A DNA stretch of 64,000 bases from Escherichia coli 042 (lineage in GTDB: Bacteria; Pseudomonadota; Gammaproteobacteria; Enterobacterales; Enterobacteriaceae): the NCBI RefSeq assembly GCF_000027125.1, contig NC_017626.1. One strand, given 5' to 3'. Shown here in pieces: positions 14,203 through 21,840 of this stretch. Under the pieces are notes generated by a model. The model was not told where the DNA came from. It worked only from the letters and a program-made list of their open reading frames with translations, and did not search any database. A program made the position numbers and the translations under genes. Every line of letters starts with the position of its first letter. Positions within the stretch are counted from its first letter, which is position 1.

Positions 14203-15156
14203 ATGCGTTTCAGTACCCAGATGATGTACCAGCAAAACATGCGCGGCATCACCAACTCTCAGGCAGAATGGATGAAGTACGGCGAACAGATGTCGACGGG
14301 TAAGCGAGTCGTTAACCCTTCAGATGATCCCATTGCTGCATCACAAGCTGTTGTTCTCTCCCAGGCACAGGCGCAAAACAGCCAGTACACGCTGGCGCGT
14401 ACTTTCGCCACTCAAAAAGTGTCACTGGAAGAGAGTGTACTTAGCCAGGTCACCACCGCTATCCAGAATGCTCAGGAAAAAATTGTCTACGCCAGCAATG
14501 GCACCTTGAGTGACGATGACCGGGCCTCGCTGGCTACGGATATTCAGGGGCTTCGTGACCAGTTGCTGAATCTGGCGAACACCACTGACGGTAACGGGCG
14601 CTACATTTTTGCCGGTTATAAAACAGAATCCGCACCGTTTAGCGAGGCGGATGGCAAATACGAAGGCGGAGCAGAAAGTATTAAACAACAGGTCGATGCT
14701 TCGCGTTCGATGGTGATAGGGCACACGGGTGACAAAATTTTCGACAGTATTACCAGCAACGCGGTAGCGGAACCAGACGGTAGCGCTTCTGAAACCAATC
14801 TTTTTGCCATGCTGGATAGCGCCATCGCAGCCCTGAAAACGCCGGTCGCGGATAGCGAAGCGGATAAAGAAACCGCCGCTGCGGCGTTAGATAAAACCAA
14901 CCGCGGACTGAAAAACTCGCTGAACAATGTCCTGACCGTTCGCGCGGAATTAGGCACGCAGCTGAACGAACTGGAGTCGCTGGATTCATTAGGTAGCGAT
15001 CGCGCATTAGGGCAAACGCAGCAGATGAGCGATCTGGTTGATGTGGACTGGAATGCAACTATTTCATCTTACATCATGCAGCAAACGGCATTGCAGGCAT
15101 CGTATAAAGCATTTACCGATATGCAGGGATTGTCGCTCTTCCAGCTCAACAAATAA
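14203..15156 (+). CDS. flgL: Flagellar hook-associated protein 3 FlgL
   Basis: 317-aa ORF, recognised FlgL; last gene of the cluster. Confidence 0.92.
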   Translation: MRFSTQMMYQQNMRGITNSQAEWMKYGEQMSTGKRVVNPSDDPIAASQAVVLSQAQAQNSQYTLARTFATQKVSLEESVLSQVTTAIQNAQEKIVYASNGTLSDDDRASLATDIQGLRDQLLNLANTTDGNGRYIFAGYKTESAPFSEADGKYEGGAESIKQQVDASRSMVIGHTGDKIFDSITSNAVAEPDGSASETNLFAMLDSAIAALKTPVADSEADKETAAAALDKTNRGLKNSLNNVLTVRAELGTQLNELESLDSLGSDRALGQTQQMSDLVDVDWNATISSYIMQQTALQASYKAFTDMQGLSLFQLNK

Positions 15157-15249
15157 GCTCGCTTTAAAACATATCATGAAACTGGGTATGTTTTCTCTGC
15201 CTGCTCTGGGATCGCCGGGGCGGGCATTTTTTGCATGAGACATAACGAA

Positions 15250-16034
<785 letters not shown>

Positions 16035-16065
16035 AAATATATCCTTCGGCTTTGCATGGATGATA

Positions 16066-16095
16066 ATTATACAGCGCATGTAACGCTAATGTCAT
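16066..16095 (-). promoter_or_regulatory. Putative sigma-70 promoter of the toxin-antitoxin operon
   Basis: Minus strand reads ATGACA-N18-TATAAT, about 30 nt upstream of the antitoxin ATG; overlaps a short imperfect inverted repeat (GTAATGACATTAGCGTTAC) that could be the operator. Confidence 0.45.
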
Positions 16096-16117
16096 TACAA
16101 CAAAGATGCTACCCTGA

Positions 16118-16146
16118 AATAAAAAAGCCCTGGCAGTTACCAGGGC
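16118..16146 (-). terminator. Intrinsic terminator downstream of rne
   Basis: Perfect 7-bp stem GCCCTGG / CCAGGGC with 6-nt loop (16127-16146), followed on the minus strand by TTTTTTATTT; lies just after the rne stop codon. Confidence 0.6.
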
Positions 16147-16166
16147 TTGATTGCTTGAGCTAATTA

Positions 16167-19100
16167 TTACTCAACAGGTTGCGGACGCGCAGGAGCGGCA
16201 GAGGCATGATGCGTTGCCGTATGACCACCTGCGGCACCTTTGCCTTCGAAGGCAAAAGTAGGGCGCTGCCAGTCACTGTGACGCGGTGCCTCCGGAACAT
16301 ATTCCGGTGCCGGAGCGCGCGTCATTGGCGCGGTAGCGTGGTTATGCTCAACGGTGACCTCAGGTTTAACCGCGGCTACCGTTTCAACTTCTGCTGCGAC
16401 TTCAGCGACGACAGGCGCGGCAGGTTGAGCAACAACTTCAGGTTCAGCAACCACAACCTCAGCAGTTTCGGCAACTTCTTCAATATCTGCCGTCTCTTCC
16501 TGCGGTTCAACCACCGGTTCTGCGTGTTCTGCAACTTCCTGGGCTACGGCAACATCAGTCTCGGTAATCACCTGCGGCTGTTCAGTTACCGCGGCGGCAA
16601 TCACTTCAGGATGCGTCGTTTCAACCACTTCCGGTTGCGGTTCGGCAACCTGAACGGGGGCTTCTACAACTTCAGCCACTTCTTCAACAACCGGTGCGCT
16701 AACAACAGGTTCGACAGCGGCGGCGACAGGGACCTCAGTCACCATCGGCTGCACTTGTACTTCTTCCTGTTCGCGCTGCTCTTCGACCTGTACATCTTGC
16801 GGACGTACAATTGGATAGCGGATCCAGACTTTGCCAGAGGCCAGTTCCGGAGATGCGCACGCTACGGTCAACGGCATTGGCGATTGGGTTGGATAACGCT
16901 CGTCACGATAGCGACGACGACGCTGACCACTCACGCGCAGGTGACGAGGCGAGCGGCGAGAACGACGCGGCATGCCACCGTTGTCACGGTTATCGGCATT
17001 GTTCTCTTCTTGCTGTTCTGGTGCAGCTTGCGCTACGACTGGCAGCGGGACTTTCACCAGTTCTGTGCGTGGAGCTGGCGCTTCCTGAACAATTGGTTCG
17101 GCAGCGACAGTTTCTTCAACCACCGGTGCGACTACCGCTTCTTCGGCTACGCTTTGCTCGTAACGCACTTTCTGATTGAGCTGACGCTGTTTACGACGCG
17201 GCTGAACCGGACGTACACGTTCTTCCTGTTCGGTTTCCTGAACAGATTGCTCTTCAACATTCAGCGCCTTCGCTTCTTGTTGCGCCTGACGTTTATCATC
17301 GTTACGGCGGCGGCTACGTTCACGACGCGGCGCTTGCTGCTCGTCGGTGGTACGCGCTTTTTCCGTTACCTCAGCCTGCTGACGGCTCTCACGCGTCTCG
17401 GCAGTCTGCTGCTGTGCCTGGCGACGATTACGACGGTTTTCTTCGCGATTATCGCTGCCTTCTGTACGTTCACTACGGGTATCGCGGCGCTCATTACGGT
17501 CACGGCGGTTGTTCTGACGAGGCTTGCGACGATCCTGTTGACGTTCCGGTTTCGCTTCTGCTTTCGGTGCTGGTTGCTCGGTCGGTTTGGTTTCTTCACC
17601 ACCGCTGAACAGCGCTTTCAGTGCGCCGAAGAAGCGGCTTAACAGCCCAGGTTGTGCAGGAGCTGCTGGTGTTGCCGGTGCAGCTTTAGGTGCTGGGGCT
17701 ACGACAGGCGCGGCAGGTTCAGCTGGGGTTGGTGCTGGCGGCACATCCGGCATGGCAAAGGTAGCCAGCGCAGGTTGTTCCGGACGCTTACGTTCAGCGA
17801 ACTCTTCTTCAGACGGCAGCGCCATCGCTTCTTCATGCAGCTTCGGCAGCATGTAGCTTAAGGTTGGGGTTTCTTCCCCTTTGCGCACGCGCAGCACATG
17901 GTAGTGCGGGGTTTCCATCTGATCGTTTGGCACAATCACACAGCGCACGCCGTCCTGACGAGTTTCAATCGCATTCACTGCAGAACGTTTTTCATTCAGC
18001 AGATAAGAAGCGATTGGCACAGGAACAATGGCGTGAACTTCCTGGGTGTTCTCTTTCAGCGCTTCTTCTTCGATCAGACGCAGAATAGAGAGCGACAGCG
18101 ATTCGTTGTCACGCACGGTACCGGTACCGGAGCAGCGCGGGCAGACGTGATGGCTGGATTCACCCAATGATGGGCTCAGGCGCTGACGGGACATTTCCAG
18201 CAGGCCAAAGCGAGAAATATGGCTGATTTGAATACGCGCACGGTCCTGACGCACCGCTTCACGCAGACGGTTTTCTACCGCACGCTGGTGGCGTACTGGC
18301 GTCATGTCGATGAAGTCGATAACAATCAGGCCGCCGAGGTCACGCAGGCGCAGCTGACGAGCAATCTCATCGGCAGCTTCGAGGTTGGTGTTAAACGCGG
18401 TTTCTTCGATATCGCCGCCGCGGGTCGCGCGTGCGGAGTTGATGTCGATGGCCGTTAACGCTTCGGTGCTGTCGATAACAATGGAACCACCAGACGGCAG
18501 ACGAACTTCACGCTGGAAGGCGGACTCAATCTGTGACTCGATCTGGTAGTGGCTGAACAGCGGGATCTCGCCGGTGTACAGTTTGATTTTGCTGCTGAAA
18601 TCCGGGCGACCTAATGCAGCGATATGCTGACGTGCCAGTTCGAGCACTTTCGGGTTATCGATAAGGATTTCGCCGATGTCCTGACGTAAGTAATCGCGGA
18701 ATGCGCGAACGATGACGTTGCTCTCCTGATGAATCAGGAACGGAGCCGGGCGGCTTTCAGCGGCTTTTTTGATGGCTTCCCAGTGTTTCAGACGGAAGCT
18801 TAAATCCCATTGCAGCGCCTCAGCAGATTTGCCGACGCCAGCGGTGCGCACGATTAGCCCCATGCCTTCCGGCAGTTCAAGGCTTGCCAGTGCTTCTTTT
18901 AATTCGGTACGGTCGTCGCCTTCGATACGACGAGAAATGCCACCCGCGCGCGGGTTGTTCGGCATCAGAACCAGATAGCTACCCGCCAGACTGATAAAGG
19001 TGGTTAATGCCGCGCCTTTGTTGCCGCGCTCTTCTTTATCGATCTGAACAATGACTTCCTGACCTTCACGCAACACATCTTTAATGTTGGGACGACCATG

Positions 19101-19352
19101 TGCACTGTAGTTAGCAGGGAAATATTCGCGGGCAATTTCTTTTAGTGGGAGGAAACCGTGACGTTCAGCGCCGTAATCAACAAAAGCAGCTTCCAGACTC
19201 GGTTCAATGCGGGTGATTTTACCTTTGTAGATGTTTGCCTTTTTCTGCTCGTGCCCTGGACTTTCGATATCCAGGTCATACAGACGCTGCCCATCTACAA
19301 GGGCAACGCGCAACTCTTCCTGCTGAGTTGCGTTGATTAACATTCTTTTCAT
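16167..19352 (-). CDS. rne: Ribonuclease E
   Basis: 1061-aa ORF; N-terminal catalytic domain [30 protein letters not shown] and Arg/Pro/Glu-rich low-complexity C-terminal scaffold region. Confidence 0.95.

Positions 19353-20932: not shown

Positions 20933-21840
<908 letters not shown>

Follow-up and report, generated by a model that had tools for sequence, protein, structure and literature searches.

A two-gene toxin-antitoxin cassette lies on the minus strand between flgL and rne in the 64-kb stretch of E. coli chromosome analyzed here (the window, 64,000 nucleotides in full). The genes flgJ, flgK and flgL occupy the plus strand, rne is located upstream of the cassette on the minus strand, and rluC lies beyond rne. 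The original prediction had singled out 16035-16120, next to the rne terminator, as a candidate promoter with an autoregulatory operator. We examined this interval by comparison with E. coli genomes that carry an empty site, with homologous loci in other bacteria, and with the operators of known antitoxins.

Cassette boundaries and gene content

The cassette ends were defined by alignment against two empty-site genomes (L001 and L002). The sequence shared with these genomes spans the rne stop codon (TAA, 16169..16167), the terminator hairpin and the T-tract, and it stops at 16115. The following 882 bases, from 16114 to ~15233 on the minus strand, are private to the window and comprise promoter, antitoxin and toxin; they stand in place of 66 unrelated bases in the flgL-rne spacer of the empty genomes. 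The right junction is accurate to about 2 bp owing to an A-run, and the shared chromosomal backbone picks up again at the flgL terminator, whose hairpin (15198..15226, plus strand) is found just past the right end of the cassette. The rne coding sequence (RNase E; 16167..19352, minus strand) is a 1061-aa ORF that carries the rne annotation in matching E. coli records. Of 5,426 complete E. coli genomes, every one except a single genome matched the cassette flanks, and the cassette itself is present in about 686 (685-686, ~13%), always as a single chromosomal copy; the carriers include the O127:H6 strain of record NZ_LT903847.1, APEC O2-211, and a strain named ST648. When plasmids were searched, the exact cassette turned up only in two records (H24 and H25), evidently chromosome-sized sequences filed as plasmids, and the search gives no evidence for a plasmid-borne E. 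coli copy. Elsewhere in the window, an ORF with IS3-family transposase-like (integrase-core) sequence directly after rluC (20965..21687, minus strand) suggests an insertion sequence that is absent from some E. coli.

The rne intrinsic terminator (16115..16148, minus strand) was detected by terminator scan and RNA folding. It has a 10-bp stem and a 4-nt loop (16148..16125), followed by the T-tract TTTTATTTCA down to 16115, and from its sequence it looks strong and efficient. An Rfam scan of 14900..16500 gave sub-threshold matches only, all centred on the terminator hairpin. Since the terminator is identical in the cassette-less genomes and the shared sequence ends at 16115, we concluded that the terminator is native to rne and that the rest of the 16035-16120 interval came with the cassette. 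The first cassette base (16114) is one base past the T-tract and only 14 nt upstream of the predicted 23-bp operator described below (16 nt upstream of its core palindrome), indicating that the control region travels with the genes; homology to a Klebsiella cassette begins at query position 10, about 16104. The element had been placed within about 50 bp of the rne hairpin, which agrees with a -35 hexamer that begins 29 nt past the terminator stem. Because the cassette starts one base past the terminator tail, the geometry would allow read-through from rne into the operon. When such a read-through RNA is folded by prediction (16020..16100, minus strand), the -10 region pairs with the Shine-Dalgarno sequence and AUG of the antitoxin gene. 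The z-score of -2.8 for the 156-nt segment derives largely from the terminator and belongs to a single-sequence prediction; the pairing, if real, would make read-through transcripts poor templates.

The antitoxin gene (15741..16034, minus strand) encodes 97 aa and matches PF08681 (TacA1/DUF1778, E = 1.2e-26), with a ribbon-helix-helix (RHH) N-terminus; matches to RHH_1 and NikA-like families are weak and sub-threshold. Its start codon, ATG at 16034, is the start in the RefSeq annotation of an identical cassette (97 aa). The second gene (15250..15744, minus strand) encodes a GNAT acetyltransferase toxin of 164 aa, as identified by the Pfam GNAT families, chain A of PDB 7AK7, and RefSeq annotation, and its ATG overlaps the antitoxin stop codon in the tetranucleotide ATGA (15744..15741). 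Antitoxin first, GNAT toxin second, with the two genes overlapping in one operon, is the gene order of a type II GNAT/RHH module. Both proteins have their closest solved structure in PDB 7AK7 (antitoxin against chain C, E = 1.2e-45 and about 81% identity over 97 aa; toxin against chain A, E = 7.7e-76), which we take to be the Salmonella TacA2-TacT2 complex (Grabe et al. 2021). The toxin carries K29, the residue that tells TacT2 isoforms apart (PMC5959882), consistent with that presumed identity of 7AK7. Salmonella TacT2 and TacT3 arrest growth by acetylation of aminoacyl-tRNA and are neutralised by their antitoxins (PMC5959882). The 7AK7 entry contains four antitoxin and two toxin chains, a ratio consistent with a T-A2-A2-T hexamer, and the antitoxin is homologous to the solved RHH antitoxins of 7AK7, 7ZG6, and 5ZGN. 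Judged from these homologies, the E. coli cassette encodes a predicted type II GNAT/RHH module of the TacAT/KacAT/AtaRT/ItaRT group. Identity with ItaRT of E. coli HS was considered and rejected, ItaRT being another locus (EcHS_A0501). Within the antitoxin coding sequence, an imperfect palindrome GCGCAAATTTAAAGATTCGC (15984..16003, 77% complementary) coincides with the codons of the DNA-reading beta-strand and is probably due to chance.

Predicted promoter and inverted repeat upstream of the antitoxin gene

The predicted promoter, ATGACA-N18-TATAAT on the minus strand (16095..16066), is present as described and scores 11/12 as a sigma-70 promoter, with the -35 hexamer ATGACA at 16090..16095 and the -10 hexamer TATAAT at 16066..16071. 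No other sigma-70 match of at least 11/12 was found on either strand of the 64-kb window, and this score was reached in 0.24% of mononucleotide shuffles of the 132-nt rne-antitoxin intergenic region (P about 0.002). The 18-nt spacer is one nt over the optimum and within the 16-18 nt expected for a sigma-70 promoter with hexamers near TTGACA/TATAAT; the arrangement of the two hexamers is kept in the homologues. The proposed AAGGA ribosome binding site was likewise confirmed at 16046..16042 (minus strand), 7 nt before the ATG, and GGAGG or AGGA occupies the equivalent place in homologous loci. From the position of the -10 hexamer, transcription is predicted to start in the zone 16053..16065 (minus strand), at about 16061..16057. 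Just after the -10 hexamer, the box TTATCATCCATGC (16065..16053, minus strand) is the counterpart of TTAATATCCAGAG, conserved in the Enterobacterales loci L005-L033; this box might supply context for the start site, serve as a further protein site, or pair with the ribosome binding site GGAGGAT.

The -35 hexamer had also been described as lying inside a short imperfect inverted repeat with 6-bp arms. An inverted repeat does exist at this place (GTAATGACATTAGCGTTAC, 16098..16080, minus strand), but it is not significant from the window sequence alone: 6 of its 9 pairs match, a symmetry equalled by 1.1% of all 19-nt windows, and ~1.3 such repeats are expected by chance in the intergenic region. 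An automated repeat search of the region did not report it; the direct repeat D1 and the palindrome I2 that this search did report look like chance and were dropped. The significance of GTAATGACATTAGCGTTAC comes from comparison with other genomes, and the functional unit appears to be larger than the 6-bp arms, 19 to 23 bp with four hexads (16100..16078).

The predicted operator is a 23-bp site, TTGTAA·TGACAT·TAGCG·TTACAT (16078..16100, minus strand), read as four hexads in the order a> <b c> <d and supported by the conserved palindrome and by a 13-mer shared with relO. The hexads are TTGTAA (a), ATGTCA (b), TTAGCG (c), and ATGTAA (d), and the core 19-bp pseudo-palindrome GTAATGACATTAGCGTTAC (16080..16098) is a degenerate copy of the family sequence GTAATGACA-n-TGTCATTAC; by pattern scan the operator motif occurs only once in the window. 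The -35 hexamer corresponds to palindrome positions 4-9 in the left arm (hexad b), and what remains of the palindrome takes up 10 nt at the start of the 17-18-nt spacer, a relation constant across homologous loci; the -10 hexamer follows 8 nt past the palindrome. The pseudo-palindromic site at 16100..16078 overlaps the -35 hexamer and part of the spacer of the module's own promoter. With the -35 hexamer inside the left arm, a bound repressor should occlude RNA polymerase and would have to compete with sigma region 4. Hexad c, TTAGCG in the window, is degenerate throughout the Enterobacterales copies; this renders the E. coli operator asymmetric, and a repressor may bind it asymmetrically or less tightly than the ancestral palindrome. 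Inspection of the upstream sequence by eye revealed no second complete hexad pair that could form a second operator, only a lone CTGTAT overlapping the -10 hexamer.

Conservation of the palindrome in homologous loci

A scan with the antitoxin protein, limited to one genome per species, yielded 66 loci from Enterobacterales, Xanthomonas, Marinobacter, Methylocaldum, beta-, alpha-, and delta-proteobacteria, and Acidobacteria. Right-alignment of the upstream regions on the start codon brought out a single block shared by almost every locus. The upstream regions of 59 loci were scanned, and in 56 of these, from four proteobacterial classes and Acidobacteria, the top match to GTAATGACA-n-TGTCATTAC is located 29-78 nt (mostly 48-67) before the start codon; with few exceptions, a -10-like TAnnnT follows 7-8 nt past the palindrome. 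Cassettes with the same promoter-operator are found in many unrelated surroundings that lack an upstream rne. The most symmetric copies are found in distant members of the family, GTAATGACATTGTCATTAC of L063 with 9/9 pairs and those of L053, L046, and L059 with 8/9. In Sphingomonas (L036) the site GTAGTGACATTGACACTAC, of the form GTAGTG...CACTAC, is changed on both arms with the symmetry kept. When 25 distinct distant loci are aligned, only the palindrome and the -10 hexamer carry information, and the flanks score about 0.

To put these alignments into numbers, we compared 348 well-diverged pairs, in which the 45-aa RHH stretch is at most 80% identical. Mean identity over these pairs was 0.74 for the 19-nt palindrome, compared to 0.25 for the 20-nt upstream flank, 0.27 for the spacer after the operator, and 0.34 for third codon positions; first and second codon positions reached 0.82. 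The palindrome at 0.74 against 0.25-0.34 for flank, spacer and third positions indicates purifying selection about as strong as that on the protein. The left arm, at 0.86, is the better conserved of the two, a value that is confounded with -35 function. The right arm (0.64) belongs to the promoter spacer, whose sequence is read only sparsely by RNA polymerase, so its conservation is not explicable by -35 function. As a mirror image of the left arm, it points to a symmetric DNA-binding protein. We concluded from these comparisons that the 19-bp palindrome conserved across bacterial phyla is very probably, as a sequence-based prediction, the operator of this GNAT-module subfamily.

Several loci depart from the common pattern or carry additional features. 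Two paralogous cassettes occur in some genomes, such as L011/L012 of Pectobacterium carotovorum (on one contig, about 4 kb apart) and L016/L017 of P. aroidearum. The operators of L011 (GTAATGAGATAAGCTTTAC) and L044 (GTAATGGGATAATCTTTAT) are diverged, and the corresponding antitoxin strand reads RVTLNLRIK or RATLNLRIK, not RETLNLRIK; this co-variation of operator and strand hints that paralogues may be insulated from each other. The copies L024, L032, and L039 (Brenneria and relatives) look like decaying cassettes: their -10 is damaged (GGATAAT), their right arm is degraded (GCGCTGC), and the N-terminus of their antitoxin carries substitutions (C for R11, and H for R17 in L024). A fragment resembling a tRNA T-arm, CCTTCGGTTCGATTCC, is present just upstream of the cassette in many Enterobacterales homologues (L005-L023 and others), about 25-45 nt upstream of the operator (locus coordinates about 1395-1415), and is missing from the E. 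coli copy. ARAGORN found no complete tRNA at this fragment in the homologous upstream regions; a tRNA-Phe gene is found about 650 bp downstream in L033. The fragment may be the remnant of an island attachment site.

Proposed operator recognition, relation to relO, and alternative explanations

RHH antitoxins of the DUF1778 type had been put forward as repressors of their own promoters, which fits the PF08681 assignment here and the literature on analogous modules: KacAT and AtaRT (PMC6698736), TacAT (PMC5449658), and ItaRT (PMC6125619) are related DUF1778 antitoxins or complexes that bind palindromes in their own promoters, and ItaRT represses its own promoter (PMC6125619). Our literature search returned no experiment on the E. 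coli locus, no binding, reporter or start-site work on its closest relative, and no operator description for the 7AK7-type subfamily. The kacAT locus of Klebsiella pneumoniae and ataRT of E. coli O157:H7 are of the same module type, with a DUF1778 RHH antitoxin and a GNAT toxin, and are regulated by conditional cooperativity; the KacA4KacT2-DNA structure is 5ZGN (PMC6698736). KacA is a distant relative of the window antitoxin (E = 2e-7); in an ungapped alignment its DNA-contacting residues R8, D10, and R12 correspond to S13, N15, and R17 here. The kacAT/ataRT palindrome differs in sequence and spans the transcription start site, whereas the site described here covers the -35 hexamer.

In Salmonella, the TacAT complex binds to its own promoter no more than 81 nt from the start codon (VanDrisse et al. 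2017, PMC5449658). The tacAT locus (STM3651-52) is also a DUF1778/GNAT module, and TacA is a paralogue of the window antitoxin (E = 1e-15) with the reading strand QLNLRAK (residues Q-N-R plus K); TacA K12A abolishes binding (PMC5449658), and the equivalent of K12 is K19 here. The tacAT promoter has two separate sites, each with hexads paired 10 nt apart, and shows no alignable similarity to the window operator. Direct transfer of the TacAT gel-shift map (-81..-6) was therefore rejected, since TacA is a different paralogue with a promoter that is not alignable, and TacAT was used as an analogue only. The EMSA-positive TacAT probes, as reconstructed from primer sequences, contain one inverted hexad pair each (ATGTAT-N10-ATACAT and TTGTAA-N10-ATACAA), and by analogy these inverted xTGTAx hexads lend some support to the hexad reading. 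A closer relative was found in Salmonella enterica subsp. diarizonae (L019), whose antitoxin is 81% identical to that of the window, begins with MPAANSMAMK as in 7AK7, and is preceded by an operator of the same type, GTAATGACATCTGCGTTAC; the E. coli copy differs in its location between flgL and rne and in having T, not C, in both outer hexads.

A literal motif search of the literature led to relO, and the relB upstream sequence was taken from an E. coli genome (TTGTAATGACATTTGTAATTACAA). RelB occupies four [A/T]TGT[A/C]A hexads arranged as two abutting 12-bp half-sites (PMC2812701, Overgaard et al. 2009). The 13-mer TTGTAATGACATT is identical in the window operator and relO. The relO hexads TTGTAA, ATGTCA, TTGTAA, and TTGTAA run in the same order (> < > <) as TTGTAA, ATGTCA, TTAGCG, and ATGTAA of the window, and three of the four window hexads fit the RelB hexad, TTAGCG being the one that does not; the third hexad is degenerate in the window site and intact in relO. 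The family-wide hexad consensus is xCGTAA, ATGTCA, TTGTCA, and xCGTAA, with outer hexads of xCGTAA and not xTGTAA. Both antitoxins are RHH proteins, the one described here as a predicted binder, with the beta-strand SLNLRI compared to SINLRI in RelB, and S13, N15, and R17 correspond to S3, N5, and R7 of RelB; RelB R7A abolishes operator binding (PMC2812701). The geometry of the two sites differs: relO is 24 bp with abutting half-sites and tolerates no insertion or spacing change between them (PMC2812701), whereas the window site is 23 bp with a 1-bp overlap, its dimer centres are about 11 bp apart rather than 12, and it lacks the abutting 12-bp half-sites of the relO type. Furthermore, relO covers the -10, start site, and leader, in contrast to the -35 and spacer here, and the toxin is a GNAT acetyltransferase here and RelE in relBE. 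Homology of RelB and the antitoxin beyond the beta-strand was rejected (BLASTP E = 0.18, different Pfam families). As the two antitoxins are not detectably similar outside the strand, the likeness amounts to a shared reading head and way of working, not to membership in the RelB family.

The 13-base identity and the shared S-N-R reading head make it conceivable that RelB (or RelB2E) and the GNAT-module antitoxin bind each other's operators, and that a portable reading head/hexad pair has been exchanged between RelB- and DUF1778-type antitoxins, although on the sequences at hand we regard this as unlikely. Even less probable is control of the site chiefly by a non-cognate RHH protein such as RelB. 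The left half is the relO left half-site through TTGTAATGACATT, the reading residues are the same, and 1,242 of the 5,426 E. coli genomes contain relO; these points would suit such control, but the motif goes with TacA-type antitoxin genes irrespective of relBE, and RelB needs abutting 12-bp half-sites (PMC2812701) where this site has a 1-bp overlap and a degenerate hexad c. Transcription driven mainly by read-through from the highly expressed rne, with ATGACA/TATAAT as a minor promoter, is similarly improbable. The operon and rne run in the same direction, the cassette begins one base past the terminator tail, and intrinsic terminators are rarely 100% efficient; this terminator, however, has a 10-bp, 6-GC stem and a long T-tract, the same promoter/operator is found in many unrelated contexts without rne upstream, and the predicted RNA fold, if weakly, pairs the Shine-Dalgarno sequence and AUG with the -10 region.

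Two further explanations concern the palindrome itself. It is quite unlikely that the element is a promoter only and that the conserved block reflects -35/spacer needs or the binding of a general host factor. The most conserved part, the left arm (0.86), does contain the -35 hexamer, the repeat is insignificant within the window, and the right arm is degenerate in Enterobacterales; against this, the right arm in the spacer is conserved at 0.64 over a background of 0.27-0.34 even though sigma-70 spacers carry little sequence information, the arms mirror each other up to perfect 9+9 palindromes, including the two-sided change in Sphingomonas, and the motif accompanies the antitoxin gene across phyla with different host factors. 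That the palindrome is a recombination or mobility site marking the cassette end is hardly credible: the fixed distance to the -10 hexamer and start codon is characteristic of a promoter, the other end of the cassette has no matching site (there is one copy in the window), and the cassette has no recombinase gene, even if the palindrome comes within 14-16 nt of the left junction of the E. coli insertion, between-genus homology begins near it, and the tRNA-like fragment adjoins many relatives.

We concluded that 16035-16120 is likely the promoter and autoregulatory operator of the toxin-antitoxin cassette, a prediction that agrees with the original one and is supported by the unique promoter match and by a palindrome conserved at a fixed distance from the -10 hexamer and the start codon. 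In the mechanism that we propose, 16035..16114 would be the control region of the cassette itself, and a strong sigma-70 promoter (ATGACA/TATAAT, start near 16059) would drive the antitoxin-toxin operon, with the predicted 19-23-bp operator (16100..16078) covering the -35 hexamer and the first 10 nt of the spacer. The N-terminal ribbon-helix-helix domain of the antitoxin is expected to dimerise, and two antitoxin dimers, most likely in a toxin-antitoxin2-antitoxin2-toxin heterohexamer, would take the two operator halves. Bound about 11 bp apart on one face of the DNA, the dimers would keep RNA polymerase from the -35 hexamer and spacer, and by analogy to related systems repression should depend on the toxin:antitoxin ratio. 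We infer the cognate antitoxin or complex as the operator-binding protein, together with the stoichiometry, the transcription start, and conditional cooperativity; the stoichiometry and conditional cooperativity are carried over from KacAT and AtaRT, two systems with other reading residues and another operator sequence.

An antitoxin that represses its own promoter at a palindrome is a textbook kind of element. What the comparison would add is a concrete 23-bp target (16100..16078) with a hexad model for the autoregulation of GNAT toxin-antitoxin modules, and a family-wide operator consensus that may be used for annotating TacA2-type promoters. Together, the relO identity and the S-N-R residues common to both antitoxins suggest a simple rule linking the RHH reading strand to the DNA hexad. 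Cross-binding, if true, would tie two unrelated toxin families into one regulatory circuit wherever a strain has both.
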